Of a DNA stretch of 64,000 nucleotides, positions 13,656 through 33,229 are shown one piece after another; positions within the stretch are counted from its first letter, which is position 1, and each line of letters starts with the position of its first letter. The stretch covers positions 32,001 through 96,000 of the IMG/VR virus record IMGVR_UViG_3300033233_000009; one strand, written 5' to 3'. This stretch comes from a virus. The notes below the pieces were generated by a model. That model searched no databases, was not told the origin of the DNA, and saw nothing but the letters and a program-made list of their open reading frames with translations. The translations under genes and the position numbers were made by a program.

Positions 13656-13747
13656 GAACTGGATGGCGGCACGGGAGGACGGAAGCTCACGCGGGTCCGG
13701 TCCGGCATTGGCCCCCCAAGATTAGCCGGCCACCATTTTTCGGTGCA

Positions 13748-13782: not shown

Positions 13783-13860
13783 CACCATCGACCCGTAGGA
13801 GCCAGCCGTACTTTCGAGGCCGCTGGGCACACCGCGCTAAGCGCGGAGGTATGCCCGAAG

Positions 13861-15891
13861 ATGGCCAGAACAATCGGCAAGGCGTTCAAGATCGGCAAGA
13901 AGGACGTGAAGTCCTACGGCTACGCCACGCCGAACCGCCGCGCGGGTGGCCGCATGACGGCGAACGCCGGGGTGACGGCCATCGCGGCCATCAACGGCCC
14001 CGGGGCACACGCTCGGCACCACCGGGGCGTGAGCGCGCGGGCGGCCATGAACGGTCTGTCGCGCGAGGAGCGCCTCGCGCGGGCTCGCAAGATCACCGGC
14101 GCTGACCGGGCGGCGTTCGCGCGCCGCATGGGTGCCGCCACGAAAACCAGAGGAACAACCATGCGAACGAACGCCAGTCCAGCGCAGATCGCGGCCGCAC
14201 GCCGCAACATCAAGAAGGCCATCGCTGCCCGTCGGGCAGGCGGTCATCGCCCGAACCTGCGTCCGATGCGGTTCGGTCGCCCGCTGGGCCGGCCCGGGCT
14301 GCGTCCGAACACCTGGCCCGGCGAGGTCCGTCGGCACGAGCACGCCGCGGCGCGCGGCTGGGCTCTGCGTACCGGGTCCCGTCCGCCGTTCGCCTCGACG
14401 CTGGGCACGGCGGCCAGGCGACGGAAGAAGAAGAAGCACACGGCCAACAGCCGGAGGAAGAAGACCATGAGAACCCATCGCCGGAACTTCAGCGCGAAGC
14501 AGCGGGCTGCCGCGCTCCGCAACCTCCGCAAGGCACGTGCCGCGCGGAAGCACCGCCCGAACGCCCGGAAGACGCGGAGCCGCCGGAAGGCGCACCGCCG
14601 CAACGGGCTGGTGTCGAACAAGCGGCGCGTCGCGCGGCGCAGGAGCCACCGCAAGAACTTCAGCGCGAAGCAGCGGGCCGCCGCGCTCCGCAACCTGCGC
14701 AAGGCGCGCGCGGCGCGGAAGCACCGCCCGAACGCCAAGCGGCGTACGGCTCGCCGGAGCCACCGTCGCAACGGCCTGGTCTCGAACAAGCGGCGCACGC
14801 ACCGCCGGAACTTCAGCGCGAAGCAGCGGGCTGCCGCGCTCCGCAACCTCCGCAAGGCACGTGCCGCGCGGAAGCACCGCCCGAACCGGAAGCACCGCCG
14901 GAACACGCACCGCAAGGCGCACCGCCGGAGCCACCGCCGCAACGGCCTGGTCTCGAACGGAGCATTCCGTCGCAACCAGTTCCTCGCGACGGCCAAGGCG
15001 GTCCTCAAGATCGGCGCGATCACCACGGCGGGCTTCGTGGCGCACAAGGCCGTCACCAAGGTCTTCACCGACCAGATCCTCGACCGCATCCTCGGGTCGA
15101 GCGGCGCGGCCTCCCCGGCCAAGCCGGCGGCGGCGAGCGGGCTCGAAGCGCTCCAGCCCTACCGGAGCATCATCGGCGGCGCCGCAGTCGCGGCGGCCGG
15201 CGTGTTCCTGGCCAACAAGGTGGTCAAGGACACGCAGACCAAGATGTTCCTCACGGCCGGCATCGCGACCTCGCTCGTTCACTCGATCGCGGTCGTCGCG
15301 CTGGCGAAGCTCGCTCCGTCGTACTCCGGCTACCTGTCCGGCGACGGAACGGCAGCCAACATCTCGGCCATGTACGGCTTCGGTGCGGGCGCGAGCATCA
15401 TGCCCGAGTACCACCCGATCAACGGCCTGGGCGAGTACTTCGCGCAGAACGGCCTGGGCGAGTACTTCGCGCAGAACGGCCTGGGCGAGTACTTCGCGCA
15501 GAACGGCCTGGGCGCGTACACGAGCAACCCCGACCTGATGCAGGCGGCGGCGGGCTACGGCGTGGTCGAGAACCAGAACAGCAACATCGTGGACCCCGGT
15601 GGTGACCTCGACGCGCAGCTTTCGATCGCGGAAGCGGCGGCGGGCGTCGGCGCGGTGCCCTACGAGGCGGCAGCCGGCTTCGGCCGGGTGCAGCCGTTCG
15701 AGGCGAGCGCGGGCTACGGCGGCTTCGGTGCGGTGAGCACCGTGCCGCCCACGGCCGACACCTGGATCCCCGGCTCGTCGCACGGCCAGCTCTGGGCAGG
15801 CACCCGCGACATCACCGCGGGCCAGTCGGCCCACGAGATGGTGAGCGCCGGGATCATGGAGACCGGCGGCAACCAGGGGGTCTTCGGCTGA
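13861..15891 (+). CDS. Arg/Lys-rich protamine-like core protein with TM segments and NGLGEYFAQ repeats
   Basis: 3x HRxNFSAKQRAAALRNLRKARAARKHRPN; central hydrophobic segments; acidic Gly-rich C-terminus. Confidence 0.7.
   Translation: MARTIGKAFKIGKKDVKSYGYATPNRRAGGRMTANAGVTAIAAINGPGAHARHHRGVSARAAMNGLSREERLARARKITGADRAAFARRMGAATKTRGTTMRTNASPAQIAAARRNIKKAIAARRAGGHRPNLRPMRFGRPLGRPGLRPNTWPGEVRRHEHAAARGWALRTGSRPPFASTLGTAARRRKKKKHTANSRRKKTMRTHRRNFSAKQRAAALRNLRKARAARKHRPNARKTRSRRKAHRRNGLVSNKRRVARRRSHRKNFSAKQRAAALRNLRKARAARKHRPNAKRRTARRSHRRNGLVSNKRRTHRRNFSAKQRAAALRNLRKARAARKHRPNRKHRRNTHRKAHRRSHRRNGLVSNGAFRRNQFLATAKAVLKIGAITTAGFVAHKAVTKVFTDQILDRILGSSGAASPAKPAAASGLEALQPYRSIIGGAAVAAAGVFLANKVVKDTQTKMFLTAGIATSLVHSIAVVALAKLAPSYSGYLSGDGTAANISAMYGFGAGASIMPEYHPINGLGEYFAQNGLGEYFAQNGLGEYFAQNGLGAYTSNPDLMQAAAGYGVVENQNSNIVDPGGDLDAQLSIAEAAAGVGAVPYEAAAGFGRVQPFEASAGYGGFGAVSTVPPTADTWIPGSSHGQLWAGTRDITAGQSAHEMVSAGIMETGGNQGVFG
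14476..14886 (+). repeat. Three copies of an ~80-bp coding repeat
   Basis: aacttcagcgcgaagcagcggg...cggaagcaccgcccgaac recurs three times. Confidence 0.85.
15421..15514 (+). repeat. 27-bp tandem coding repeat, ~3.5 copies (NGLGEYFAQ)
   Basis: aacggcctgggcgagtacttcgcgcag x3 plus partial; 26 nt of the array recur at 22205-22230. Confidence 0.9.
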
Positions 15892-15899
15892 GCTAGCCG

Positions 15900-16100
15900 A
15901 TTCCCTCGCGCTCCAGGCGCGGTGTCCTCCGGCAACGGAGGCCCGCGCCTTGGGCGCGTAGAGAGCACCCGTTCCCTTCCCCAGCTCCGCCCAGGAGGTT
16001 CCGCAACAGCGGTTCCCTGGGCTTCGGCCGTTGAGAGCCCAAGAGGGAATTTCCCCTCGAACGAGGAACGTAGCCTCGCAAAAAACGGTAAGGCTCATAC
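15900..16100 (+). ncRNA. Structured leader or intergenic RNA upstream of the putative capsid gene
   Basis: Nested stems 15907-15958 capped by a GCAA tetraloop; stem 16013-16049; further small hairpins. Confidence 0.4.
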
Positions 16101-16109
16101 GGAGTTACC

Positions 16110-16868
16110 ATGGCAAAGGTCGTTTCCATTCGCGAGCGAGTGCACCAGCCCTTCTGGGACAGTCTCGTTCGCACTGCCGGCTTGACCGCCGGTGCCCTCA
16201 ACGACACCACGTCGCTGTTCACCTCGAACGGCGCGCGGTCCGAGGCCACCACCAACCTGATCAACGGCAGCACGCTGCCGTCCGACCAGTCGCACGTGGT
16301 GCTCGCGCTCCGCGTGTTCACGTGGTTCCGCAACCCGATCCTCCGGGTCCCGGGCGGCGCGCCCGGCTCGGGCGAAGTCTCCGAGAACGGCGACTACGGC
16401 ACGCTCACCCCGTGGCTCGTCGGCGGTCCCGGCTTCGGCCAGGCTCCGGCGAACATCGAGGACATCTACCGCCTGCACTGGCAGACGGAGGAGCAGCTCC
16501 ACTGGAGCTTCGGAACGGGCCTCAAGAACAGCATCGACAATGTTCCGACGTGGTACTTCCCGACGGGAGGGGGCATCTCGGGCGACATGGGCGCCGCAAC
16601 CGACCTCATTCACTGGCAGAACAGTGGATGGGACGGGCACAGCGGGATCCTGCGGCTCGCCCGCGCGATCCTGATTCCGCCCCGCCAGAACATCCTCTGC
16701 CAGGCCAAGATTTTCGCCCTCCCCGACGCGGGGCAGGCGCAGACCTTCCTGACGTCGCAGGGGTCGCGGAACATGCTGTCCCTCAAGGACAACCTGAACG
16801 CGGTGGACGCGGCGCAGAAGTGCATCACGTTCGTGTTCGACGGTCTGTTCTCCCGAGACGTTCAGTAG
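16110..16868 (+). CDS. Putative major capsid protein (single jelly-roll type)
   Basis: QPFWDS, TNLINGSTLP, LARAILIPPRQN, C-terminal ITFVFDG beta pattern; no TM; follows the basic core protein; GGAG RBS. Fold inferred, not computed. Confidence 0.55.
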   Translation: MAKVVSIRERVHQPFWDSLVRTAGLTAGALNDTTSLFTSNGARSEATTNLINGSTLPSDQSHVVLALRVFTWFRNPILRVPGGAPGSGEVSENGDYGTLTPWLVGGPGFGQAPANIEDIYRLHWQTEEQLHWSFGTGLKNSIDNVPTWYFPTGGGISGDMGAATDLIHWQNSGWDGHSGILRLARAILIPPRQNILCQAKIFALPDAGQAQTFLTSQGSRNMLSLKDNLNAVDAAQKCITFVFDGLFSRDVQ

Positions 16869-16901
16869 CCAAGTACTGCGCGGCACGGAAGGGACACGGG
16901 A

Positions 16902-16938
16902 AGTGGTCGCGGGGCCTTCGACGGGCCTCGCGACCACT
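16902..16938 (+). terminator. 15-bp GC hairpin after the capsid gene, containing 16 nt identical to the CRISPR repeat
   Basis: agtggtcgcggggcc-ttcgacg-ggcctcgcgaccact; no U-tract, so termination is uncertain. Confidence 0.5.
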
Positions 16939-17009
16939 CGCTCCCGAGCGGGGGCAGGTCTGATGCGTACGGCGCGCTCCGCCGGTACTCCCTTGTGGAG
17001 GTAGCTACG

Positions 17010-17972
17010 ATGAATCCCATGCTTCAGCAGTTGATGGACAGCGCGGGCCTCGCGATCAAGCAGTCGCGTGACGCGCTGGCGGCCTCGCAGCAGATCGGCA
17101 ATCAGGTCAGCGGGGTGCGCCAGGAAATGGCGCGGCTCGCGCAGAACGCAGCCGATCTCCAGTCGGCGATCGGTCGCTTGCAGGTACAGCGGGCGAACGG
17201 CGACCCGGGCATCCAGCGGGTCGAGAACATCCCCGGGCGGCGGGTGCCGTTCGACCTGTTCGTGGACATCCCCATCGGGGACAACGTGACGAGCGTCCAG
17301 CAGGGCACGATCACGATCAGCCAGGAGGGGCCGTTCGTGGCCGTCTCCCGGATGGCGGTCTTCCTCTCGACCTACCAGTTCCAGGTGGTCACGGACCCGA
17401 ACCAGCCGAACAGCAAGGCGACGTTCGCCGGGCGGAGCTTCGGAAGGCAGCGGCCGATCCACAGCGTGTGGGACCTGAACGACGGGCTGCCGCGCACGCA
17501 GGTCGTGATGGCCGTCGCGATGCCGGGCACGGGCGCCCCGCAGGTGATCAGCCCGTCGAACGCGAGCCCGTTCCGCACGATGGAGGCGGACTACCGGATC
17601 CGGTTCGAGAACGCGGGGTCGAGCTTCCCGCGGTCGAACATCGAAATCCCGAGCGCGTTCTGGACGCGGGGGATGAACGATCCGTTCGAGCTGGCGGCGC
17701 TCGACGTGTTCGAGCGGGGCGAGGTGATGACCTTCCAGGTGCTCCCGCTCCACCCGAACAACCCGCCCTTCGGCAACGTCGCCGGCTTCGGCGCTCCGAA
17801 CCCGGCCTACCCGTTCGTGCAGAGCGGCTGGGATGCGGTGGAAGGCGTCGTGGACGCGAACAACCCCGCTGCCGGCACCACCGATCCGGTGACGCGCGTG
17901 GCGAGCGGCATCCTCACGATCGGCTTCCACGGCTACCGGATCGTCCAGCCTGCGGGCGCGGGCCCGTACTGA
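17010..17972 (+). CDS. Putative second capsid/penton jelly-roll protein with N-terminal coiled coil
   Basis: GGAGG RBS; ITISQEGPFVAV, PFELAALDVFERGEVMTFQV, LTIGFHGYRI. Confidence 0.5.
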   Translation: MNPMLQQLMDSAGLAIKQSRDALAASQQIGNQVSGVRQEMARLAQNAADLQSAIGRLQVQRANGDPGIQRVENIPGRRVPFDLFVDIPIGDNVTSVQQGTITISQEGPFVAVSRMAVFLSTYQFQVVTDPNQPNSKATFAGRSFGRQRPIHSVWDLNDGLPRTQVVMAVAMPGTGAPQVISPSNASPFRTMEADYRIRFENAGSSFPRSNIEIPSAFWTRGMNDPFELAALDVFERGEVMTFQVLPLHPNNPPFGNVAGFGAPNPAYPFVQSGWDAVEGVVDANNPAAGTTDPVTRVASGILTIGFHGYRIVQPAGAGPY

Positions 17973-17986
17973 GAAAGGGCCCCACG

Positions 17987-18625
17987 ATGTCGTACCGCGC
18001 AACGGGTGCTGTTCCTCCGGTTCTCCACGCGGCGCAGCGGCCGCTCACCGCCCAGGACTGGGCGAACATTTCGCTGTACGCCAAGGCCGTGAAGGACGCG
18101 CAGCGGCAGCGCCGCATGGGCGGCGAGCGGGCGATGCACGGCATGGGCGACCTGGGGCTTGGGCTCCTCCCCGCCCCCGCGCCCGTTCCGATGCCGATGC
18201 CGACGCCGACGCCGGTGGCCACCTCCGTGGCCGACTGCGTGCGGCACAACACGCAGAAACTGGCCACGCTTCCGACCCTCCGGCTGGGAGCGCGCGGCGA
18301 GGCGGTGGGCGGCTGGCAGGAGGAGCTGCGACACCTCGGGGCCGCCATCCGGGTGGACAGCGTGTTCGGTCCGGCCACCCGGGCGGTGACGGTGGCCTGG
18401 CAGCGCAAGCACGGTCTGGTACCGGACGGCGTGGTCGGCCCGCGGAGCTGGGCCACGATGATCCAGGTGCACTGCGCCCGGCGGGCACAGATGGATGCCA
18501 TGCGGGCGACGCACGGCATGGGCGCCGAGGCGGAGCTGTCCAAGCCTTCCGTCGTGCTGCCCGCCTTCGTCTACGGGGCCGCGGTGGGTCTCGGGCTGGG
18601 GTACGTCTTCTTCGCGTCGAGGTAG
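17987..18625 (+). CDS. Peptidoglycan-binding domain protein with C-terminal TM
   Basis: LRLGARGEAV..WQ..L...VDSVFGPAT..WQRKHGLVPDGVVGPRSW (PG_binding_1 pattern). Confidence 0.8.
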   Translation: MSYRATGAVPPVLHAAQRPLTAQDWANISLYAKAVKDAQRQRRMGGERAMHGMGDLGLGLLPAPAPVPMPMPTPTPVATSVADCVRHNTQKLATLPTLRLGARGEAVGGWQEELRHLGAAIRVDSVFGPATRAVTVAWQRKHGLVPDGVVGPRSWATMIQVHCARRAQMDAMRATHGMGAEAELSKPSVVLPAFVYGAAVGLGLGYVFFASR

Positions 18626-18637
18626 GAGCACACCGAG

Positions 18638-19381
18638 ATGGACGCGCAGAAATTCGTCGAGCAGTGCGTCGCCAAGGTGCAGCGGCAGCCGGCGATCCGG
18701 CTCGGTGCCCGAGGCGACGCGGTGCGCGTGTGGCAGACCCTGCTGAACCGGGAAATCGGCCAGGCGCTTCGGGTCGATGGGGTGTTCGGTCCGAACACCC
18801 ACCACGGGACGGTGGCATTTCAGCGCAAGGCCGGCCTGCGCCCGGACGGCGTGGTCGGATCGAAAACGTGGGCGGCCGCATCGGTGGCTCCCTGCTACGC
18901 CCAGGCGGTCGTGCAGCAGCGCGGCGCGGCGGCAGGCAAGGGCGGGGGCCAGGCGGCGCGTCAGGCCGCGCAGGGCCTCGGCCGCGGCGGCGGTGGGCAT
19001 CACGGCGGTGGCGGTCACCACGGCGGCGGCGGTCATGGCGGTGGGGGACACCACGGCGGCGGCGGTCGCTTCTGGGGTGGGGGCGGCGGCGGCGCGTACT
19101 TCGCCCCGGGCGGCGGCTACCCGTACATCGTCGAGGACTACGGGCCGACGCTGCTCGTGGTGGGCGACGACTGCGCGAACCGCGTGCGGAACTCCTGCTA
19201 CCAGCAGTTCAGCCAGAACCCCGCTCAGCAGGCGGGCTGCACGCAGGCCGGTCTGGCCCGGTGCGGCACGGCGGGCCTCGGGGCGATGGACTTCACCTTC
19301 TCGGTGCTCGACCCGAAAAGCATGGTTCTCGGGGCCGTGCTCGGCCTCACGGTCGGGGCCGTGCTTTTCGGGCGGAAGTGA
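18638..19381 (+). CDS. Peptidoglycan-binding domain protein with GGGHH repeats and C-terminal TM
   Basis: IRLGARGDAVRVWQ..VDGVFGPNT..FQRKAGLRPDGVVGSKTW; paralog of the previous gene. Confidence 0.8.
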   Translation: MDAQKFVEQCVAKVQRQPAIRLGARGDAVRVWQTLLNREIGQALRVDGVFGPNTHHGTVAFQRKAGLRPDGVVGSKTWAAASVAPCYAQAVVQQRGAAAGKGGGQAARQAAQGLGRGGGGHHGGGGHHGGGGHGGGGHHGGGGRFWGGGGGGAYFAPGGGYPYIVEDYGPTLLVVGDDCANRVRNSCYQQFSQNPAQQAGCTQAGLARCGTAGLGAMDFTFSVLDPKSMVLGAVLGLTVGAVLFGRK

Positions 19382-19396
19382 GCGAAGATCAGGCGC

Positions 19397-20275
19397 ATGC
19401 AGCCCAGCTTCCGCGAACAGATGCTCGCCTCGTTCCAGGCGGTGAATCCCCACATGGCGCTGGGCGCTGCGCCGCCGCAGCCGGAGCCGGCCGCGAGCTT
19501 CAAGGAGACGAGCATCAACAAGGTGGTCCAGGCGGGCGGCGAGGTTGCGGCGCGCTTCATGCACCCGACGTTCCTGCCGTTCGAGAAGCTGTACCGGAAG
19601 TTCCCGCAGCAGGGCGTGTTCACGGCGACGCCACAAAACAACTTCGTGCTGGAGCTGGGGTCGTTCCGGGTGCCGCAGCAGATGGCGTTCGCCCTGGTGG
19701 ACTACCGCTTCGACCTGTACCGGCTGTCAGGGGCGGCAGCGGGCGACTGGGTGCCGCTGGAGGAGCGGCGCCTGTCGGGCCAGATCGGCTACGACGTGCT
19801 GATCGCTGACTACCGCAAGGCAAACCTGTCGTACGAGCTGGACCCGACGGAAATCCAGGCGGCGAAGGAGGCGAGCGAGCAGCCGCCGAGCCCCGGCATC
19901 ATCGCGGCGGGCGCGGAGTTCAACAACAATTTCCCGCCGCAGATCGGCAACCCGCTGTTCCCGCCGAGCGCGGCGCCGTTCGGCGCGAGCCTCACCGACT
20001 TCGCGAACGCGCGCGCGGCCGCTGCGTCGTCGCCGGGTGGCCCCGGGCTGTCGCTCATGCCGCAGCGCCACGAGCGGCTCGGGCCGCTGCCGCTGCCCTT
20101 CACGCTGATGGTGCGCGAGAACCAGCGCGTGACGTTCAAGGCCGTCGTGTTCCGGCCGGTGCCGATCCCGCTGGCGTTCTTCGAGGTGGACGTGACCGGC
20201 GTGCTCATGCCGGCGAACGTCGCCGATTCGCTGCTCGCCGCGATGGCGCCCTACGTGCCGCAGGGGAGGCACTGA
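19397..20275 (+). CDS. Beta-rich protein, possible third jelly-roll protein
   Basis: FRVPQQMAF, PFTLMVRENQRVTFKAVV, FFEVDVTGVLM resemble the patterns in 16110 and 17010. Confidence 0.4.
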   Translation: MQPSFREQMLASFQAVNPHMALGAAPPQPEPAASFKETSINKVVQAGGEVAARFMHPTFLPFEKLYRKFPQQGVFTATPQNNFVLELGSFRVPQQMAFALVDYRFDLYRLSGAAAGDWVPLEERRLSGQIGYDVLIADYRKANLSYELDPTEIQAAKEASEQPPSPGIIAAGAEFNNNFPPQIGNPLFPPSAAPFGASLTDFANARAAAASSPGGPGLSLMPQRHERLGPLPLPFTLMVRENQRVTFKAVVFRPVPIPLAFFEVDVTGVLMPANVADSLLAAMAPYVPQGRH

Positions 20276-20447
20276 TGCCGAGCGGGCTCCAGTCTACGGG
20301 CGGCGACGCTCTCGGGTGCTTTCTTCTTCGTCGTCGGCAGCACCGTGACGCCTCGTGCGCTCCCGCAACTCAAAAAGTGGGAGTCAGCGAGATCGTCCTC
20401 GAAACGAGGGTGTCGCCTCCCGTTCTATTCCGGCGGGAGGTGCGACC

Positions 20448-21215
20448 GTGAACGGCAGCCCCGCGTACTACCGTCCGCAGGCGGCACTGGCGCTGGCAAC
20501 CGACAGCGGCGACGCCGCGCTCGGCAAGGGGCAGAGCCTCGCGGTCGAGACGATGCTGCGCACCGTGCGATCGAGCCATGCGTTCGATCCGCTCGGCGTC
20601 TACGTGCCGTGGGCACGGCAGAAGGGCGGTGTCACCTGGGAGACGATCGCGGAGCCGGACCACGACCTCGTGCTCTACCCGATCAGCGCCGCGACGGTCG
20701 ATCGGGTGAACGCGGCGTCCTACGGCCACGAGCTGCCGTGGGTCGGCGTGGTCGCCGAGGCACCGACGAACAGCCGGACGGCTGACGAGGTGTGGGACGC
20801 GACGCGGTACGATCTGTTCGCGGTCGAGGGGCTGTACGACGTGAACGATGCGCGGCCGGCGCCGCGGATCTGTTTCCTCTACTGGGCAAAGCTCCACGAT
20901 GACGTGGGCGGCGGGCGAGCGTCGCTCGATGCGGTCGCGCAGCGGCTTGGAGGGCGACTCGTGTTCCCGATGCACGTGCCGGTCACCGATCCGCGCCGGC
21001 CGCCGTCGCTACCCTTCCAGATGGTGCTGAACGCGCAGCTTGCCGGCCCGGAGGCGTTGCCCGAGCTGGCAGGCTTCGGCGCGGAGGCGAGCGCAGCAGC
21101 GGCAGCCGCGGCACCGCCCGCGACCCGGAGCGCGCTGCCGTGGCTGGCGCTCGCCGCCGCGGCAGGCGGCGCCGTGTGGCTCGCGCTGCGCGGCGGGAAG
21201 CGAAGGAAGCGGTGA
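20448..21215 (+). CDS. Hypothetical protein with C-terminal TM and basic tail
   Basis: GGAGG before GTG 20448; LPWLALAAAAGGAVWLAL-RGGKRRKR. Confidence 0.6.
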   Translation: MNGSPAYYRPQAALALATDSGDAALGKGQSLAVETMLRTVRSSHAFDPLGVYVPWARQKGGVTWETIAEPDHDLVLYPISAATVDRVNAASYGHELPWVGVVAEAPTNSRTADEVWDATRYDLFAVEGLYDVNDARPAPRICFLYWAKLHDDVGGGRASLDAVAQRLGGRLVFPMHVPVTDPRRPPSLPFQMVLNAQLAGPEALPELAGFGAEASAAAAAAAPPATRSALPWLALAAAAGGAVWLALRGGKRRKR

Positions 21216-21218
21216 GCG

Positions 21219-21449
21219 ATGCCGACCTTCATGGCGACGCCGACCGACGTGCTGAAGCTGGTGCACACCGCACGGAAGCTCGACGCGAATCCGTTTTCGC
21301 TCGCGGGCAAGCTCGTGGGGCTCGGCGCGGACGAGCAGCGGGCGGGCATCCCGGCGTGGGCCTGGGTGCTCGCGGGAGTGGGGGTCGGGGTGGCACTCGG
21401 CTGGAAGCTCGCGCCGACCGCGCGGGCGCGACTCAAGGCGTTCTCCTGA
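21219..21449 (+). CDS. Small membrane protein
   Basis: TM AWAWVLAGVGVGVALGW. Confidence 0.6.
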   Translation: MPTFMATPTDVLKLVHTARKLDANPFSLAGKLVGLGADEQRAGIPAWAWVLAGVGVGVALGWKLAPTARARLKAFS

Positions 21450-21467
21450 ACCAAAGGACAAGTAACC

Positions 21468-21878
21468 ATGGCATTTGCACTCGCAGTCGGTGACCTCGTG
21501 TCCCCCCTCGCCGTCGCGGCCTTCGCGTCCAGCACCGAGCCGCCGCTCCTCGGCGTCGTCACGAAGATCAGCCCCACGACCGTGGTGTGGCAGGATGGGC
21601 GCGAGGTGACCTACACGCCCTCGACGGGCGCCTCGGTGGACGAGGGGCTGTCGAAATTCGAGCCGACCCTCGGCACACCCTTCCAGAACGCGAAGGTGCG
21701 GCCGAACGGGACGATTCCGTTCCCGAACCCTGCCGGTCGCGCGGAGGGCTTCGTGGTGCTCGTCGGCAACGTCACCAACGCCCTCGTGACGGCACTACCG
21801 ACGGCGATCATCCGCTTCGGCAACGGCCTCTACACGGCGGTGCCCGTCTCCGGCATCGAGGTGATCCCGGGCGCCTGA
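21468..21878 (+). CDS. Hypothetical beta-rich protein, paralog of 48924-49358
   Basis: MAFALAVGDLVS..VVWQDGREVT vs MAFVLGDVVS..VLWEDGRVVT. Confidence 0.65.
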   Translation: MAFALAVGDLVSPLAVAAFASSTEPPLLGVVTKISPTTVVWQDGREVTYTPSTGASVDEGLSKFEPTLGTPFQNAKVRPNGTIPFPNPAGRAEGFVVLVGNVTNALVTALPTAIIRFGNGLYTAVPVSGIEVIPGA

Positions 21879-21900
21879 GAGGCCCGCCGCTCTCCCGATA

Positions 21901-21938
21901 CCGAAAACTTGACGGCGAGCCGGGCAGCCGGCGAGCAT
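21901..21938 (+). promoter_or_regulatory. Promoter CCGAAAAC-TTGACG-N18-GAGCAT
   Basis: Recurrent motif in an intergenic position. Confidence 0.55.
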
Positions 21939-21955
21939 GAAGGAACAGGCAAACC

Positions 21956-22360
21956 ATGTCGCTCAATCAGATGGCGTACCAGTCCGGCGTGCTCGGGGCC
22001 CTGCCCCCGGCTCCCGCCTTCCGCTCGGGCTCGCTCGGCGTGCTCGGCTTCGTGCCGCCGGTGTCCGGTGCGGTGCGCTCGGGCTCGCTCGGCATCCTGG
22101 GGGCGCCCCCACCGAGCGGCGCCGTGAAGTCCGGCGTGCTCGGCACGCTCGGTGGCGGCCCGCCTCCCTCCGGTGCGGTGCGCTCCGGCTCGCTCGGTGT
22201 ACTCGGCGAGTACTTCGCGCAGAACGGCCTCGGTGCCGATGCGGTCGTGATGCCCACCGCGGTGGGGCCGAAGCCCGCCATGGCGACCCTCACCATGGCC
22301 ATCGCTGGCCTGGGCGCGGTCGCCGCGATCTGGTGGGCCATGACCCGCCGGCACGCCTGA
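21956..22360 (+). CDS. Repetitive membrane protein (SGAVRSGSLG repeats, GEYFAQNGLG, C-terminal TM); carries the self-protospacer
   Basis: Internal repeats; shares a DNA motif with the core protein gene. Confidence 0.7.
   Translation: MSLNQMAYQSGVLGALPPAPAFRSGSLGVLGFVPPVSGAVRSGSLGILGAPPPSGAVKSGVLGTLGGGPPPSGAVRSGSLGVLGEYFAQNGLGADAVVMPTAVGPKPAMATLTMAIAGLGAVAAIWWAMTRRHA
22153..22188 (+). other. Protospacer identical to CRISPR spacer 5
   Basis: tggcggcccgcctccctccggtgcggtgcgctccgg at both 22153-22188 and 33554-33589 (36/36). Confidence 0.95.
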
Positions 22361-22406
22361 GCCCGGCATCGGAGGGCTGCCCGGGAGAGCCCTTCGGAGC
22401 GGACGC

Positions 22407-22444
22407 CCGAAAACTGGCGTGAGGGTTGGACCCAGGTGTAGCCT
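22407..22444 (+). promoter_or_regulatory. Promoter CCGAAAAC-TGGCGT-N18-TAGCCT
   Basis: Recurrent upstream element and -10. Confidence 0.5.
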
Positions 22445-22456
22445 GCGAGGCACAGC

Positions 22457-23077
22457 ATGGCGGACCTGCTCGAAACCCTCGGCCGCGTCGTCCTGACCTT
22501 CCAGTCCGCTCCGCAGGGCGTGCCGGGCAGGATCTGGGACGAGCTGCGTCCGTGGTTCGGGCGGCTCGTGGTGAGCGCGGCGCCGAAGTGGCTACCGCGC
22601 CTGTCGTTCGGCTTCGCGTGCTCGGTGCCGCATCCGAACGGCGCGGCCTGTCCGCGGCCCGCCATCGCGGCCTGCGATGTGTGCGGCCAGCCCTGCTGCC
22701 TCGACCACGCGCGCATCGACCAGTACGGCGACGCGATCTGCTACCTCTGCTGCATCGAGGCGATCCGGCGGAAGCAGGCCGAGCGCGCCGGGGAGCCAGC
22801 GCCGGGGCACGGTCACGCCCAGGGGGGCCATGCCGGGCACGGGCATGGGCCGCAGCCGACCCCTGAAAAGGAGCTGGCCTGGGCCCGCAAGACGCTCGGC
22901 GTGAAGAAGGGCGCGGACTGGGAAGAAGTGCGCGCGGCGCACCGTAGACTCTCCGCGAAGTGGCACCCCGATCGCCATCAGGGCGCGGGCTACCAGGCAG
23001 CCGAGGACCGGTTCAAGCAGGTACAGAGAGCGTTCGACTTGCTCACGAAGGAACGTGAGCGAAAGGAAGCGGCGTGA
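22457..23077 (+). CDS. Zinc-finger plus C-terminal J-domain (DnaJ-like) protein
   Basis: CxxC motifs; ARKTLGV..EVRAAHRRLSAKWHPDRH..RFKQVQRAFDLL. Confidence 0.85.
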   Translation: MADLLETLGRVVLTFQSAPQGVPGRIWDELRPWFGRLVVSAAPKWLPRLSFGFACSVPHPNGAACPRPAIAACDVCGQPCCLDHARIDQYGDAICYLCCIEAIRRKQAERAGEPAPGHGHAQGGHAGHGHGPQPTPEKELAWARKTLGVKKGADWEEVRAAHRRLSAKWHPDRHQGAGYQAAEDRFKQVQRAFDLLTKERERKEAA

Positions 23078-23798
23078 TGGCGAAGCGAGCAACCAAGGCG
23101 AAGCGGGCCCCCGCTGACTTCGACGACGAGGACGCGGTGCTCAAGGAAGTTGCGAAAGACCTCGGCGAGGACGCCGACGATCTGAAGATCAAGGAGGACG
23201 GTGGCCTCGGGAGTTTCGGCGAGGGCACGGTCTACCGGATCAGCACGCCACGCGGCGGCCGCGAGTGGTGCGTCGTGCAGGACCACGACACCGCCTACAA
23301 GCTGGCCGTCGCAGTGGTCACTCAGGATCTGGAGAGCGAGCCGGAAATCTTCAACAAGGACTTTCTCGAATCGCACATCGACAAGATGAAGCTCGCTCGC
23401 GAGCTGGAATCGGACCTGCGCAGCATGGCCGAAGACGACGTGCGCGAATGGACGCGGACGACTTCTGGCGCGAGGCGGGGCGCGAGGGCATGGAGGTGCC
23501 GGAAGCCGAGGTGGACGAGGACGGCAACGAGGAGGATCTGCGCGACCCGACCGAGAACGAGCTGAGCGAGCTGGCCGAGAAGCGCGTCGAGGACCAGCTA
23601 CGCGATCCGATGCAGTACCTCTCCGACATTTACGGCGACAAGGAAGCGGTCGAGCAGGCGATCAAGATCGCGGGCATCGACGTGGACGCTGCCGCCGAGG
23701 ACGCCGTGGACACCGACGGCTGGGAGCACTTCCTGTCGCGCTACGACGGGCACAGCCACGAGACGGCGAGCGGGTTCGTCTACTGGCGGGAGAACTGA
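23077..23798 (+). pseudogene. Acidic hypothetical protein split by an apparent 1-nt frameshift near 23447
   Basis: Frame reads ..DDVRE then continues as MDADDFW.. in another frame; adding one A restores continuity. Confidence 0.55.
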
Positions 23799-23801
23799 GC
23801 C

Positions 23802-24581
23802 ATGGCCGCCCAGAAGTGGACGCTGAAGTTCCGTGAGCTTGCCGAGGGTGCATCGCTCGTCGAGGCGAAGCCACCCAAGAGCCGCCGAACGCTGAAGGGC
23901 GGCGAGAGTCCGCGCTACGTCCAGGCGTACGTCCAGGCCACCGGGATGCAGGAGCGCGCCCAGAAGCTGATGAGCTACAGCGGCGACGACGTGCAGTACA
24001 TGGAGGCCGTGATCGAGGAGGAGCACATGGCGAACGCTAAAAGCAAGACGAGCGACAAGCTCAACACGGACCAGATCGCCAAGCTGTTCGACCTCGACAC
24101 GTACGAGGATCTGAACGAGCGGAACATCGACTACATCGCCGAGCAGGGCCACTACGCCTACAAGGCCGCGATCGAGGACGGCGCCTCGGAGGAGGAAGCC
24201 GACGAAGCGAACATGAAGGGCCAGGAGGAGGCCGACGGCGAGCTGTTCCGTCAGTGGCACGACGGCGTGATGGCGGCCGCCGAGGATCTGTTCGGGAAGC
24301 ACGGGCTCACGCTGGTGCCGGTGGGCAAGCAGGGCAGCGCCGCCTACCCCTACGAGTACAAGGTCGTGCCCGAGGAGTCGTGGGACAAGGCCGTCGTCGC
24401 GATCATCGAGACGATCAACGGCGTTGGCGACTACCACTTCAGCAGCGTCCGTGAGTTTCTGGACTCCGGGCCGTACACGGCACGCTCGGGCGTGCTGGAG
24501 CACCTGGGCTACATCGCGAGCTACCCCGAGGTCTACGGGGACACGAGCGCGCGGCGCATCTACGAAGGTCACTTCCGCTGA
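23802..24581 (+). CDS. Acidic hypothetical protein
   Basis: Long ORF with protein-like composition. Confidence 0.7.
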   Translation: MAAQKWTLKFRELAEGASLVEAKPPKSRRTLKGGESPRYVQAYVQATGMQERAQKLMSYSGDDVQYMEAVIEEEHMANAKSKTSDKLNTDQIAKLFDLDTYEDLNERNIDYIAEQGHYAYKAAIEDGASEEEADEANMKGQEEADGELFRQWHDGVMAAAEDLFGKHGLTLVPVGKQGSAAYPYEYKVVPEESWDKAVVAIIETINGVGDYHFSSVREFLDSGPYTARSGVLEHLGYIASYPEVYGDTSARRIYEGHFR

Positions 24582-24604
24582 GAGGCGGGAAGGCAAGCAA
24601 CCCC

Positions 24605-25276
24605 ATGTCATACGATCGCGTGAACCCGACCTACTACCAGACGTTCCAGCAGGACACGCCCTTCCACGCCGGATCGGAGGGCTGGACGAGGTCGCCCTGG
24701 CCGACCTGGGGCGACAACCCGAACCTCGCGGGTCGGCGCACGCTCGCGACCGACGGGCTCGGTGGCTGCGGGTGCGCGGGAGCGTCCGGGCTCGGCACCG
24801 TCCTGGCAATCTCGGGGCTCGGCACCGTCGCGGTGACCAAGCCGGCGCCGTACTCCGCGCCCGCTCGGGCGACCATGGGCAACCCGGCGTCGGAGAACTG
24901 CGTCGCGAAGGGCGGCACGGTCCAGGTCGTCGAGACGCCAGCGGGGCAGAGCGGGATCTGCGTGTTGCCGAACGGCACCCGGTGCGAGGAGTGGGCGCTG
25001 TTCCGCGGCCAGTGCGGCCCGGCGGCGGCGAGCATGTTCCCTCCCATCCCCGAGCAGCCTGCCTGGAAGAAGGCGCTCAGCATGGCGGCGGGGGCCGCCT
25101 GCGCCTACCACGGCTTCAAGCGGAACGAGTCGGCAGGCTGGGCGGTCGCGTGGGCCGCGTTCGGCAGCACGATCCCCCTTCTGGCGCTCCCCATTGCGCT
25201 CGCGCAGGGCTTCGGGAAGCCGGCGCGGAAGCCCGCGATGGCAGCGAACAGGCGGCGCGGTCGCGCCCGGCGCTGA
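24605..25276 (+). CDS. DUF333-containing membrane protein
   Basis: MGNPASENCVAKGG..GICVLPNGTRCEEWALFRGQC; C-terminal TMs; GLG motifs. Confidence 0.75.
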   Translation: MSYDRVNPTYYQTFQQDTPFHAGSEGWTRSPWPTWGDNPNLAGRRTLATDGLGGCGCAGASGLGTVLAISGLGTVAVTKPAPYSAPARATMGNPASENCVAKGGTVQVVETPAGQSGICVLPNGTRCEEWALFRGQCGPAAASMFPPIPEQPAWKKALSMAAGAACAYHGFKRNESAGWAVAWAAFGSTIPLLALPIALAQGFGKPARKPAMAANRRRGRARR

Positions 25277-25282
25277 GCCCGA

Positions 25283-25320
25283 CCGGAAACTTGCCGGCCC
25301 CCGACCGGGGGGCGTAGCCT
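25283..25320 (+). promoter_or_regulatory. Promoter CCGGAAAC-TTGCCG-N18-TAGCCT (leaderless)
   Basis: ATG 6 nt after -10; spacer contains a hairpin. Confidence 0.5.
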
Positions 25321-25326
25321 CGGGGC

Positions 25327-26490
25327 ATGGACTACTACCGCGTCGGCTACGCACAGTCCCCGCTCGTTCCCATGGGGATGGGCTCCTCGCCCGACGGCCT
25401 CGGCGCGTACTTCCAGACGACGTACCAGCAGCCGATCCGCGCGGTGCACGGCGGCACGAGCACGGTGGCGGCCTACCAGCCGATCGATGGGCTCGGCGCG
25501 TACTTCGCGACGACGTACCAGCAGCCGATCCGTCCGGCGCAAGGCGGCGCGAGCATCATCGCGGACTACAAGCCGATCGACGGGCTCGGGGAGCTGACGC
25601 CCGCCCAGCGCAGCGCAGTCGCCTGGGCCTCGCTCCTCGGCTTCGTCGGGTGGGGCAGCGGGCTCCTGGCGCGGGGCCCCGTCTACGCCCGCAAGCGCGG
25701 CCCGTGGGTACCGCTGGCCGGCGCGGCGGCCGGCGTGGCGGTGGGCTACGCGATCGGCACGCGGCGGGCTACCGCCCCGCCTGCGCCCACGGCTGGCCTT
25801 GGCGCGTGCCTCCCGTGCATGGCAGCGGCCGCGGGCCTCGGTGCGGATGCGGTGCCGGCGGCGACGCCCTCCGCACTCAGCAAGCCATGGGTCAAGGTCG
25901 CGCTCGGTGTCGGCGCCGTCACGCTCGCCTGGTACACCGTGCCGGCGTTCCGCAAGCTGTGGGGTCCCGGTGGCGCGCTCGCGAAGAACAAGCGGCACCG
26001 GCGGAACGCGCACACGGGCGGACCCGACGATCACGTTTACGCGCCAAGCGGGATGCGTGGCTGGGATGCCTGCGCGAGGTGCGGTTACGCCCGCGGACAG
26101 CACCTCACTGCTGCCGAGCTAAAGCGACTCCGCTCGCTCACGCCGAACCGCCGCCGCAGGCACCGGAAGAACGCGAAGTGGTCGGGCAAGGCGAAGCGGA
26201 GCCTGCCGGACACCAGCTTCCTCTACGTTGCGCCCGGCGGCCACGCGCGCATCGAGGGCGGCAAGAAGGTCACCATCCCGCGGAGCCTGCGGAAGTTCCC
26301 GTACCGCACGGCGGCGGGCAACATCGACCTGCCGCACCTGCGGAACGCCATCGCGCGCATCCCGCAGTCGAACCTGCCGGAGAGCCAGCGCACGCTGCTC
26401 CAGGCGAAGGCCCGCGCCATCCTCGCCGAGCACGGCGGGTACAAGCGCGCGCGCAAGGCGGCGGGCGGCGTGCTCCGACAGGCGGCGTGA
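25327..26490 (+). CDS. Modular membrane protein: DGLGAYF repeats, TMs, basic C-terminal phage-type domain
   Basis: 2x DGLGAYFxTTYQQPIR; LPDTSF..RKFPY..DLPHLRNAIAR. Confidence 0.65.
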   Translation: MDYYRVGYAQSPLVPMGMGSSPDGLGAYFQTTYQQPIRAVHGGTSTVAAYQPIDGLGAYFATTYQQPIRPAQGGASIIADYKPIDGLGELTPAQRSAVAWASLLGFVGWGSGLLARGPVYARKRGPWVPLAGAAAGVAVGYAIGTRRATAPPAPTAGLGACLPCMAAAAGLGADAVPAATPSALSKPWVKVALGVGAVTLAWYTVPAFRKLWGPGGALAKNKRHRRNAHTGGPDDHVYAPSGMRGWDACARCGYARGQHLTAAELKRLRSLTPNRRRRHRKNAKWSGKAKRSLPDTSFLYVAPGGHARIEGGKKVTIPRSLRKFPYRTAAGNIDLPHLRNAIARIPQSNLPESQRTLLQAKARAILAEHGGYKRARKAAGGVLRQAA

Positions 26491-26552
26491 TGGCCAGGAG
26501 ACGCCCGAAGCCCGAGAGGCCCGACTCGGATCAAACGCTGGCCAAGGCGTAA

Positions 26553-27359
26553 GTGTCCTACGCCGCCGCCCTGCCGCTCGCCCGCTCCCAGCGCCGCCCG
26601 CTCGGGGCTGGCGCAGGCGTAGGCGAGTTCTACCTCCGGCAGTGGCCGATCATGGTGGCGCCGCGGGTGCGGGCGTACCGGCTCGCGCGCGCGATGGCCG
26701 GCTCGCTCGGAGCGACGGTACTGGGCGGCACACGGATCCCCGACAAGCTGACGCCGCTGACGCCGGAGCAGGCCGCGCAGGCGCTGGCGACGGCGTACCA
26801 GCGCGTGACGGGCAAGGTGGCCGACCAGCGGGTGCTCGGGCTCCTGATCGGGCAGACCGCGCTCGAAACCGGCAACTGGAAGTCGCTGCACAACTACGGG
26901 TTCGGAAACGTCAAGGCCACGGCGAGCGACCCGTACTACGCCGGCTTCCGGTGCTGGGAAGTGGTGAACGGCGAGAAGGTCTGGTACGAAGCCGACCACC
27001 CGGCGTGTCAGTTCGCGGCGCACCTCACCGCGGCCGACGGCGCGGAGCACTATGTACGAATCCTTCAGCGCCGTCCCCACTGGTGGGCGGGCCTGGAGTC
27101 GCGCACGGTACCAGGGTTCGTCGCGGGGCTCACGACGCGCCCCGCCTACTTCACGGCCGACCCGGGCACGTACGAGCGGGTGCTCTCCGAGCGGATGGGG
27201 CAGTACGCCGACCAGGCCGTGAAGTACGCCGGGCAGGCGGTGGAGTTCGCGGGCAAGCACAAGGTCGCGGTGGGAGGCACGGTCGTGGGCGTGTTCGCCC
27301 TCACGTTCGGATCCTGGTATCTCTACAACGCGATGACCAGCAAGCGGAAGGCGGCCTGA
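26553..27359 (+). CDS. Lysozyme-fold peptidoglycan hydrolase (GH73/FlgJ-like) with C-terminal TM
   Basis: GQTALETGNW..NYGFGNVKA..YFTADP; TM plus KRK. Confidence 0.65.
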   Translation: MSYAAALPLARSQRRPLGAGAGVGEFYLRQWPIMVAPRVRAYRLARAMAGSLGATVLGGTRIPDKLTPLTPEQAAQALATAYQRVTGKVADQRVLGLLIGQTALETGNWKSLHNYGFGNVKATASDPYYAGFRCWEVVNGEKVWYEADHPACQFAAHLTAADGAEHYVRILQRRPHWWAGLESRTVPGFVAGLTTRPAYFTADPGTYERVLSERMGQYADQAVKYAGQAVEFAGKHKVAVGGTVVGVFALTFGSWYLYNAMTSKRKAA

Positions 27360-27484
27360 CCATGGCCAAGGCATTGAGTAAGGCGGCACGCGAGGTCGCG
27401 GCCGAGACACTCTGGACGAGGCAATCAAAATGCTGGCGCGTGCGCGAGGCGCTATGATGCACGCTCGCAGGAGACTGCGCTGAC

Positions 27485-28078
27485 GTGAAGCTCGACCCGA
27501 CCATCATCCTGCTCGGTGTCGGTGGCGCGCTCGTCGGCTACGGCGTCTACCACGCACTCGCGAAGCGCGGCACCGTGCCGGCGCCGCCGTGGGTCCAGCC
27601 GGATGGGAAGCCGGAAGTGACCGGGCCACCGCCGCCTGGCCTGCTGAAGTCCGAGCCGCTGATCCAGCAACTGCTCCCGAGCCTCCAGCCGATGGCGCGC
27701 GAGACGCTCCAGCGCGCGTTCAACATCGGCATCCCGCTCGTGGTGACGCAGGGCTACCGCAGCCCGGCGACGCAGGCGGCGCTCTACGCGCAGGGACGCA
27801 CCGCGCCGGGCGCGGTCGTGACCAACGCGCCGCCGGGGTGGTCGTGGCACGAGTACCGGCGCGCGTTCGACGTGGCCGTGCTGGACGCCCGCGGGAACCC
27901 GACCTGGCCAAACGACGTGGCGCTGTGGAGCCGCATCGGGCAGTGCGGGAAGGAGGCCGGCCTGGAGTGGGGAGGGGACTGGACGGGCATCATCGACCGG
28001 CCGCACTTCCAGCACACGGGCGGGATGACCATGGCGCAGGCCCGCGCGGGGCAGAGCCCCGCGTCGCTGGTGGCGTGA
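27485..28078 (+). CDS. M15 family L-Ala-D-Glu peptidase (endolysin-like) with N-terminal TM
   Basis: GYRS..Q..LYAQGRT..VTNA..SWHEY..AFDV..EWGGDW..DRPHFQ. Confidence 0.9.
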   Translation: MKLDPTIILLGVGGALVGYGVYHALAKRGTVPAPPWVQPDGKPEVTGPPPPGLLKSEPLIQQLLPSLQPMARETLQRAFNIGIPLVVTQGYRSPATQAALYAQGRTAPGAVVTNAPPGWSWHEYRRAFDVAVLDARGNPTWPNDVALWSRIGQCGKEAGLEWGGDWTGIIDRPHFQHTGGMTMAQARAGQSPASLVA

Positions 28079-28155
28079 GCGCTGGACGGCGGCTGCCGCG
28101 GAGGGGCCAGAGGCCCCTTGACCGGGGCGTGGCGGCGGTGCTACCACTGGCGCCA

Positions 28156-28755
28156 ATGGCAGACGACGACGTGCCGGCCAAGCCGGCGGCTTCCGAGCGC
28201 ATCCAGGCCCCCATGATCTTCGTGAAGGGCGGGACCACGACCGCCGCGCACGACGCCATGATGGCGAAGCAGCGCGCCGACACGGACCAGCGCCGCGCGA
28301 TTCAGGATGCGAAGTACGCTGCCACGCAGCGCGACCCCCTCGGGGCACGGATGCACAGCATGAAGCTCGGCGGGCAGGACGACCCGAAGATCGTGCTCGC
28401 GGTCAAGCACCCGAAGGACACGCTGTTCCTTGACTGGATCGTGTGCGAGATCATCCAGCACGGGCCCGACGAGCTGGTGCTCAACATGGCGTGTCCGAAG
28501 TGCCACGCGAAGAACCCTGGCCACGAACCGGACTTCAAGATCCATCAGAGCAACCGGAAGTGGTGGCTCGACCCGAACCCCCCGAAGTGGATGCGGGAGG
28601 TGGGGGCGGATCGGATCTGGCTGAACCCGCGGGACCAGAGCACGGTCGTGGTGGCGGGCAGCGTCACTACCGAGGACTGGATCCGGTGCCCCGGGCTCGG
28701 CTGCACATGGGTGTTCAAGATCGACGACTCGGTGGTTCACACCCGGGGGCCCTGA
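28156..28755 (+). CDS. Cys-containing hypothetical protein
   Basis: TTGACC promoter-like site at 28118; CPKC and CPGLGC motifs. Confidence 0.6.
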   Translation: MADDDVPAKPAASERIQAPMIFVKGGTTTAAHDAMMAKQRADTDQRRAIQDAKYAATQRDPLGARMHSMKLGGQDDPKIVLAVKHPKDTLFLDWIVCEIIQHGPDELVLNMACPKCHAKNPGHEPDFKIHQSNRKWWLDPNPPKWMREVGADRIWLNPRDQSTVVVAGSVTTEDWIRCPGLGCTWVFKIDDSVVHTRGP

Positions 28756-29135
28756 TGGCGGGCATCTTCGACCACGAGACCGAGCAGGCCACCGACGCGG
28801 CCGCGCAGGAAGCTGACAGCCAATCGGCGGACCTGATCCAGCAGGCGGTGCAGACGATGCAGGCCGTGCAGGCGAGCCTGCCGCGCGATCAGGGCATGGG
28901 CGTGTTCGCGTACGGCGCCCCGAGTGCGCCGGGCTGGCCGGCTGCGCCCCAGCCGTTCGTGCCGGCCACCCCCGTGCAGCCGATCCCAGTCCCATCGCTC
29001 TGGATGGACCCGCCGCCGCCGCACGCCGATGCGGAGTTCGCGGCGCTGGGCAAGATCCTGGACGCCCTGGCTGGCCTTCCGCCCGAGGCGCAGAAGCGGC
29101 TCGTGCGCTACCTCGCGTCGAGGTACGAGCCGTGA
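28755..29135 (+). CDS. Hypothetical protein
   Basis: TGATG overlap. Confidence 0.55.
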   Translation: MAGIFDHETEQATDAAAQEADSQSADLIQQAVQTMQAVQASLPRDQGMGVFAYGAPSAPGWPAAPQPFVPATPVQPIPVPSLWMDPPPPHADAEFAALGKILDALAGLPPEAQKRLVRYLASRYEP

Positions 29136-29259
29136 CGGCTTGTGCTACCTTGCTCTGCAAGGCGTGGCGGCTCAATGGGTCCCCCCCCTCCTGTTGCCTG
29201 TCGCGCCCAGCCTGTCCGTCGGGGAACCCCTGGCGGGCAGGCGCTTTGGGGGGAAGACG

Positions 29260-29502
29260 GTGAGCGCGCGGGAGCCGCCTGCGTGGCTGGAGGCGCTGGA
29301 CACCGTGTTCTTCGGCATCGACTGGGCGGTGCTACTCGCGACGGTGGCCTTCGTGGTGCACGCGCTCGGCTGGAAGTCGCTGCCGGTCGTGTTCCTGCCG
29401 CTGTTCTGCGCGTACTCGGTGGGCAAGCGGCTTGCGACCGACAAGTGGATGCGGGCGATGGACGCGAAGGTCGCCGAGCTGAAGAAGCGGGAGGAGCGGT
29501 GA
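29260..29502 (+). CDS. Small 2-TM membrane protein (holin candidate, weak)
   Basis: Two hydrophobic segments, charged C-terminus. Confidence 0.4.
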   Translation: MSAREPPAWLEALDTVFFGIDWAVLLATVAFVVHALGWKSLPVVFLPLFCAYSVGKRLATDKWMRAMDAKVAELKKREER

Positions 29503-29738
29503 TTGCGCGCAAGCGCAAGAAGGCGCCGCGAGCGCGCCTCGTGGTGAAGACGCCGGTGCGGTTCCGGGTGCACGCGATCATCAGCGAGAAGGTCGAGCAG
29601 GGTGTGCGCTACGGGTACAGCCGCGCGCACAAGCACACGAACACGCCGAACGCGGAGGCGTTCACCGAAGCCATCGAGCAGGCCGTCATGGACGCGCTGT
29701 CGGAGGTGATCGACTTCGAGCCGGAGTTCGACGAGTGA
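29499..29738 (+). CDS. Hypothetical phage protein
   Basis: GGAGGAG RBS, GTGA overlap. Confidence 0.55.
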   Translation: MIARKRKKAPRARLVVKTPVRFRVHAIISEKVEQGVRYGYSRAHKHTNTPNAEAFTEAIEQAVMDALSEVIDFEPEFDE

Positions 29739-29797
29739 AGACATCCGCGCGGCAGGCCCTTGCGTGCCCACCGAGCAGGTGTTATAGCGTCTGTACG

Positions 29798-30004: not shown

Positions 30005-30055
30005 GGGCAGTGCGGGCGACCCACGAGGCCGTGCAAGGGGCGCCGCCGAACTGAC

Positions 30056-33226: not shown

Positions 33227-33229
33227 CGG

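Follow-up and report, generated by a model that had tools for sequence, protein, structure and literature searches.

We analyzed a 64,000-nucleotide (nt) stretch of viral DNA, referred to below as the window, which corresponds to positions 32001 to 96000 of IMG/VR record IMGVR_UViG_3300033233_000009. The record is 124,597 bp long with a G+C content of 70% and is classed as a linear fragment with an estimated completeness of ~69%. On the plus strand, the window carries a gene for a Cas12m-like effector (31109 to 33226) and an adjoining CRISPR array (33230 to 34886) made up of 36-nt repeats, 23 in all and identical to one another, with 22 unique spacers of 35 to 42 nt between them. With all of its repeats identical, the array looks active. 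Spacer 5 (33554 to 33589, plus strand), the fifth counted from the cas12m-proximal end, is identical to positions 22153 to 22188 on the same strand, inside a gene for a repeat-rich membrane protein (21956 to 22360, plus strand). A first-pass annotation had reported this match, and we found it again at all 36 positions (BLAST E value, 7e-16). Spacer 5 has intact repeats on both sides and an identical copy elsewhere in the same record, i.e., it is self-targeting over its full length.

A single spacer matches the viral genome

The protospacer, which reads (G)GGPPPSGAVRSG, lies within repeat unit 4 of the target gene. Identity stops at both borders of the spacer: on the left, C in the array corresponds to G in the target, and on the right, G corresponds to C. 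The sequence ..GCTCGG precedes the protospacer and CTCGCT.. follows it, in agreement with the flanks first given. Two other origins of the match were rejected, namely, chance, given the E value, and recombination between the array and the gene, given that homology ends with the spacer. No match to any of the other 21 spacers was seen in the window when up to 7 substitutions were allowed, or in the full record (124,597 bp) when up to 8 were. The comparison was also made with 17-nt guides (the first 17 nt of each spacer), with 20 rounds of shuffling as a control. There was one exact match (spacer 5), no match with one mismatch, and two matches with two mismatches; the respective means for shuffled guides were 0.05, 0.1, and 2.1.

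A partial match of 17 nt (22064 to 22080, plus strand), which had also been pointed out before, is real. It comprises spacer positions 17 to 33, the part distal to the protospacer-adjacent motif (PAM), and it lies in repeat unit 2 of the gene; it exists because a 54-nt tandem repeat within the gene (3.5 copies; 22022 to 22208, plus strand) recurs. Over the whole unit (22048 to 22083), agreement with spacer 5 is 26 of 36 positions. As a separate observation, spacer 8 (33779 to 33817) is CT-rich, low in G+C content, and of low complexity, whereas the other 21 spacers are GC-rich.

The first-pass annotation had named a chimeric contig as the finding that would undo the entire observation. We consulted an independent assembly, the Logan contigs of sediment run X1, which is probably the source run of the record. 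The region is covered by three long contigs with depths of 18, 17.5, and 16.8. One of these ends at 22182, and the next spans 22153 to 33265, physically joining the protospacer, cas12m, and the first repeat. The break between them is located at the point where a graph with a k of 31 (as deduced from the 30-nt overlap) has to split if one 36-mer occurs in two contexts. A break at precisely this 36-mer shows that the reads contain both contexts. Within the array, coverage by these contigs is thin (depths of 2.35 and 0.46 in two bins). Linkage from 22153 to 33265 at equal depth makes chimerism unlikely, though less firmly so inside the array, and we concluded that the contig is probably sound.

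The same data bear on the possibility that the record merges two kinds of genome, one carrying spacer 5 with a changed or deleted protospacer and the other carrying an intact protospacer without spacer 5. Spacers near the leader are often variable within a population, as would suit such a mixture; so would the barely covered array interior, the loss of rare variants from contigs, and the ease with which a tandem-repeat target could lose a unit. However, one contig alone extends from the protospacer as far as the first repeat, depths are similar among the three long contigs, the graph break places both contexts in the reads, and the X1 contigs contain no variant or convincing joint at 22100 to 22200. 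We consider a mixture of strains quite unlikely.

Effector, guide orientation, and flanking motif

The effector gene encodes 705 amino acids (aa). It begins with an ATG that overlaps the stop codon of the upstream gene, and 3 nt separate its end from the first repeat. The protein contains the RuvC motifs D (AIDTGW), E (LVEKIDL), and D (WDQDENA) and a C4 zinc finger. When a profile of 19 relatives was compared with the PDB, the E values were 4.3e-123 for 23vw_A (profile positions 11 to 594 of 637), 4.6e-67 for Cas12m2 (8hio_A), 6.2e-63 for 8pm4_A, and 3.6e-57 for UnCas12m4a. With the single effector sequence, the E value was 4.7e-37. Judged by these comparisons, the effector is a relative of Cas12m over its full length, as had been proposed.

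All characterized Cas12m proteins, including variants with the D-E-D triad, are reported to bind DNA without cutting it (PMC11013384); cutting by D-E-D clades is left open in one published discussion (PMC10442227). The premise of the first-pass annotation that characterized Cas12m bind without cutting and use T-rich PAMs agrees with what these two papers and a recent preprint (bioRxiv 10.64898/2026.03.26.714355) state. Type V-U1/V-M loci are described as typically lacking acquisition genes (PMC11013384). Pfam profiles for Cas1, Cas2, and Cas4 had no match in the 124.6-kb record, itself ~69% complete, and matched positive controls in 6 to 8 of 14 genomes.

Two further features of cas12m genes in this group were observed. 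The 3′ end of cas12m (33100 to 33229), which encodes a low-complexity protein tail, is kept at the DNA level in a related locus, L038 (4740 to 4815), up to the first repeat, and this conserved end may double as the leader of the array. In locus L026 (1312 to 3393, minus strand), matching 146613 to 148409 of the related genome G004, a Cas12m-like protein lacks the zinc-finger/RuvC-III segment and has R in place of the RuvC-I D; viruses of this family can do without the nuclease motifs.

The guide of PmCas12m is reported to be ~17 nt long (bioRxiv 10.64898/2026.03.26.714355). We determined whether the repeat can form the pseudoknot of the PmCas12m CRISPR RNA (crRNA), in which positions −28 to −26 pair with −15 to −17 and positions −23 to −20 pair with −3 to −6 (7 pairs). 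The plus-strand reading of the repeat permits 7 of 7 pairs, spaced from the guide as in PmCas12m, and the reverse-strand reading permits 4 of 7. All 7 pairs are also kept in the repeat of a second, distantly related virus (G003), with other bases at four of them. A complete scaffold on just the plus strand indicates that the crRNA has plus sense and is hence complementary to the target gene's template strand, in accord with the position of the cas gene upstream of the array on the plus strand. With this orientation and a type V effector, for which the PAM lies 5′ of the protospacer, the PAM position is 22150 to 22152 on the nontarget (plus) strand, where the sequence is CGG, preceded by CT.

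PAMs reported for Cas12m are TTN, YTN, YTTS, and TTV, i.e., T- and C-rich motifs (PMC10442227, PMC11013384, and bioRxiv 10.64898/2026.03.26.714355), and CGG matches none of them. TT and YT make up only 2.2% and 7.4%, respectively, of the dinucleotides in this genome, so a flank picked without PAM selection would usually miss such a motif. The published account of Cas12m2 has it reading TTN through Y141, W152, N156, Q195, and Q197 (PMC10442227). In a hand count on the HMMER alignment, the corresponding residues of the present effector were K, P, L, Q, and H. Among effectors that are 47 to 100% identical (P0001 to P0009), which read ..LTPGTY.., TP replaces YW in 9 of 9 and H replaces Q197 in 7 of 9, whereas more distant relatives have kept W152 in 8 of 10 cases and Q197 in 7 of 10. 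These clade-specific substitutions at PAM-contacting positions suggest a changed PAM. Since four of the five positions are replaced, the T-rich rule may not apply, and CGG is no certain non-PAM. The absence of a T-rich motif from the flank, as first described, stands, but the notion that the site is spared by a PAM mismatch is weakened.

Mapping of all 22 spacers, the route first suggested for deriving the PAM, provided one self-match in the full record and no other protospacer. The whole array had one match each among GenBank phages and among plasmids, both at chance level. IMG/VR contained no match to 25 nt of spacer 4, nor to spacers 18, 6, and 19 once their third codon positions had been masked as N, and comparison of the array with the records of L001, L002, L003, and G004 gave only chance matches of 14 to 23 nt. 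Likewise, no protospacer for any of the 67 segments of the G004, G003, and L038 arrays was present among the sequences compared. The repeat core occurred at eight loci in metagenome contigs: L038 carries a complete related array, the mini-array of L001 recurs in L042 and L044, and the other five look like coincidences in coding sequence. Genome contigs contained no match to the repeat core and no relative of the effector. A codon model (accuracy, 81% overall and 92% in the confident subset) called three spacers confidently as sense and three as antisense, which is uninformative about a strand bias, and it called spacer 5 itself wrongly.

The target gene and its counterparts in related viruses

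The target gene encodes 134 aa. Its G+C contents at codon positions 1, 2, and 3 (0.72, 0.62, and 0.90) follow a coding pattern. An open reading frame on the minus strand (21967 to 22716), the choice of a crude gene caller, was rejected as a gene on account of its antisense pattern (0.62, 0.71, and 0.89). The glycine/proline-rich protein has four units of the form SG..(R/K)SG.LG..G..PPP and a single C-terminal hydrophobic segment (19-residue Kyte-Doolittle mean, 1.79), followed by the basic tail RRHA; its motif LGEYFAQNGLG is common to neighboring genes. No family in Pfam, NCBIfam, or PHROG was found for it. The product thus reads as a repeat-rich, tail-anchored protein; the attributes "structural" and "late" draw on context and gained no confirmation from a family match.

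A promoter-like box, CCGAAAACTTGAC (21901 to 21913, plus strand), lies 43 nt upstream of the target-gene ATG. The box recurs at 8556 and 12579, and a variant at 22407 precedes the next gene (22457 to 23077), whose product has a DnaJ domain. Within the window, the core of the box (8 nt) was counted 4 times (0.51 expected), a number reached in 1 of 100 shuffles. Overall, the box or a variant is found ahead of membrane-module genes at 8556, 12579, 21901, 22407, and 25283, followed by GGGAAGCTA in two cases. These boxes probably form a virus-specific promoter class. A sigma-70 scan around the target gene yielded no promoter, and one terminator-like site was found, at chance level. Because the target gene and the next gene each have a promoter-like box, a roadblock at the protospacer would be expected to affect mainly one gene.

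The target gene belongs to a presumed virion module (10167 to 28755). For five other proteins of this module no family was found in Pfam and PHROGs, nor was one found for three more in one library. Taken over the whole module, nine large proteins lack a family in the library or libraries used for them (five in both Pfam and PHROGs, four in a single one). The only domains recognized were the DnaJ domain at 22457 to 23077 and an M15/VanY cell-wall peptidase (27485 to 28078), and the module proteins scanned included no tailed-phage hallmark.

We found one complete related genome, G004 (179,401 bp, with terminal repeats). Its homolog of the target protein is 52% identical and 181 aa long, with conserved ends and extra repeat units; a neighboring 320-aa protein is 89% identical between the two viruses. 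The protospacer itself is not conserved in the G004 homolog, which agrees with it at best over 17 of 18 nt. We then compared related arrays with their own sequences. In G004, 0 of 18 segments match the complete genome; in G003, 0 of 19 match the 63-kb record; and in L038, whose effector is 63% identical, 0 of 30 match the 9.3-kb sequence. Within these sequences, self-matches are absent from all three related arrays and hence are not a conserved feature.

In both G004 and L038, the repeats adjoining cas12m are uniform and those far from it are degenerate. Judged by this pattern, spacer 5 sits close to the young end of its array and is probably a fairly recent gain. The L038 array (4820 to 6900) has ~31 repeats and degenerates away from cas12m; it also contains pairs of similar but diverged spacers, e.g., segments 1/12, 7/16, and 9/27, as if it had grown by duplication besides acquisition.

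Truncated repeats were also observed in these viruses. They lack the first 5 nt but retain all 7 scaffold pairs, and they stand alone or in mini-arrays with guides of 16 to 20 nt, close to the ~17-nt mature guide of PmCas12m. Such repeats are present at 39527 to 39557 (plus strand) in the window, at 106172 to 106252 (minus strand) of the genome, outside the window, at 10585 to 10860 (minus strand) of L001, and in L042 and L044. At the end of the G004 array, too, the repeats are truncated and their guides short. The copy in the window lies 18 nt ahead of a TTGACA sequence. The truncated-repeat guides of this genome have no match of at least 12 nt elsewhere in the genome.

The first-pass annotation had offered programmed repression of a late gene as one explanation of the self-match. 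Cas12m with crRNA-5 would bind the template strand at 22153 to 22169 or beyond, and the resulting roadblock would lower or time expression of the membrane-protein gene. Silencing by Cas12m has been described both at promoters and within coding regions, on either strand (PMC11013384 and PMC10442227). The guide is perfect and its target unmutated, the altered PAM-contacting positions of the clade leave CGG possible as a PAM, and the stand-alone truncated repeats with short guides in the same genome hint at fixed guides. Against this, the self-match does not recur in the three related arrays, the protospacer is not kept in the G004 homolog, the site has no known Cas12m PAM, and a guide in mid-array would be lost by turnover. 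Known cr-like regulators, moreover, are described as stand-alone repeats with partial matches (bioRxiv 10.1101/2023.03.03.530964). Spacer 5 is instead an ordinary full-length spacer, identical to its target at all 36 positions, in a uniform, growing array. Self-repression was thus not substantiated, and we regard it as unlikely. A natural CRISPR interference circuit acting on the virus's own virion-membrane gene, in which altered PAM residues would read a G-rich CGG unused by characterized Cas12m, is a more far-reaching version that we likewise regard as unlikely.

The other explanation first offered was a spacer directed against a close competitor. In that case, spacer 5 would derive from a coinfecting, near-identical virus and serve superinfection exclusion, and the carrier would be spared by some difference outside the 36 nt, e.g., in the PAM or in DNA modification. 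Virus-borne arrays against related viruses have been reported (PMC7162821 and PMC11656645), and a related strain makes up a small share of another sediment run, X2. However, the carrier itself has the perfect match, and the X1 contigs contain no alternative flank. In addition, 0 of the 21 other spacers match G004, G003, or partial loci at the DNA level, and none scored above shuffled spacers against G000/G004 proteins (best score, 4.00 per residue; shuffled maximum, 4.17). With neither DNA nor protein kinship, the array does not look aimed at kin viruses. Spacers thus did not fit relatives better than the carrier in this comparison, which covered two related genomes and fragments. The claim of a competitor-directed spacer was not substantiated, and we hold such an origin to be quite unlikely.

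Proposed origin and tolerance of the self-match

We tentatively favor, with a little less than even confidence, the explanation that spacer 5 is a genuine spacer taken from DNA of the virus itself, or of a clone-mate that could not be told apart from it, and is tolerated as causing little or no damage. With an effector and an array but no Cas1, Cas2, or Cas4 in the record, new spacers would be inserted in trans by the adaptation machinery of the host. The replicating viral genome would be a major source of DNA fragments in the infected cell, and the GC-rich tandem repeat of the target gene is a plausible break site. A study of nuclease-free systems borne by mobile genetic elements describes acquisition of spacers in trans by machinery that prefers mobile-element DNA, with self-targeting as a cost (bioRxiv 10.1101/2023.06.23.546257).

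Once transcribed, crRNA-5 would anneal to the gene at 21956 to 22360 on its template (minus) strand, ~200 nt downstream of the promoter-like box. Tolerance could come about by any of three routes: CGG may be no PAM for this effector, so that nothing is bound; the site may be bound and not cut, with partial repression of one membrane-protein gene being affordable; or the virus's own DNA may be chemically modified and thereby shielded. The unchanged protospacer and the lack of a variant contig in X1 fit weak or absent pressure on the site.

Downstream of the array, the region 36517 to 47683 encodes a ThyX-like protein, a protein with DUF3310, a "GT4 in conflict systems" glycosyltransferase, and an FkbM-type methyltransferase; these genes may form a DNA or surface modification module. 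Modification as the shield, retained as a secondary option, draws on these genes and on a paper in which protection by GoCas12m is listed for unmodified-C and hydroxymethyl-C T4 phage only.

Several points weigh against a tolerated self-sample. CGG could be a working PAM, to go by the replaced residues, and spacer 5 would then be active. The D-E-D triad is intact, and a harmless accident would be out of the question if the effector cut DNA and its PAM worked here. Assuming that spacer 1 is the newest, four or more acquisitions followed that of spacer 5 while spacer and target stayed unchanged, as is equally expected of a useful spacer. An origin from self cannot be distinguished from an origin from a near-identical strain, contigs cannot show minority alleles, and the record is a fragment with an estimated completeness of 69%.

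Characterized type V-M systems (MmCas12m2, GoCas12m, and PmCas12m) resemble the present one in the full-length homology of the effector, the array directly downstream of the effector gene, the lack of adaptation genes, and a repeat that can form the crRNA pseudoknot pairs at the same positions. In contrast to those systems, this one is encoded by a large virus rather than by a plasmid or chromosome, its effector is ~100 aa longer with a low-complexity tail and a retained D-E-D triad, and the positions with which Cas12m2 reads TTN are replaced in its clade. Type V-M systems have been noted on plasmids and some prophages (PMC11656645), and V-U variants have been noted in huge phages (PMC7162821); neither "self-target" nor "own genome" occurs in the main text of the latter paper. 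Among the papers listed on self-targeting with Cas12m or virus-encoded CRISPR, we found no virus-encoded Cas12m array directed against its own genome.

Self-targeting spacers in a virus have been published before: the metagenomic Chiyouvirus of Bathyarchaeia has a mini-array with two spacers that match its own genome at 100%, with a role described as unclear (PMC10541130). The two cases are alike in that a metagenome-assembled virus carries an array with spacers identical to its own genome. They differ in that Chiyouvirus has only mini-arrays and is presumed to use host effectors, whereas the present virus encodes its own effector and has 22 spacers, 1 of which is self-directed. Bacterial and archaeal genomes offer another parallel: perfectly self-matching spacers must be borne there, whether because the PAM is missing, the effector is inactive, inhibitors act, or regulation is involved (PMC6990116 and PMC7708048). 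Here, however, the "self" is a virus, and the effector belongs to a noncutting family, which lowers the cost of a match.

Type IV-A systems of plasmids and chromosomes share binding-based interference on a mobile element without adaptation genes of its own, and self-targeting by them has been recognized as costly or as a possible means of regulation (bioRxiv 10.1101/2023.06.23.546257). Unlike the system described here, they use a multisubunit class 1 complex with DinG and are found on plasmids, not in a virus. A natural self-targeting, nuclease-free type IV system has reportedly been described for P. oleovorans, which counts in favor of programmed repression.

The significance of spacer 5 depends on the activity of its guide. 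If the guide is active, the virus would regulate a gene of its own with its own CRISPR effector, and the match would point to a Cas12m clade with a non-T PAM, of use in building compact DNA-binding tools. With an inert guide, the match would be a clean natural record that viral arrays lacking adaptation genes take up DNA of the virus itself, and it would bear on how such arrays fill and what keeps them safe. Either way, 22153 to 22188 provides a native target site with which to study the PAM and binding of this effector.

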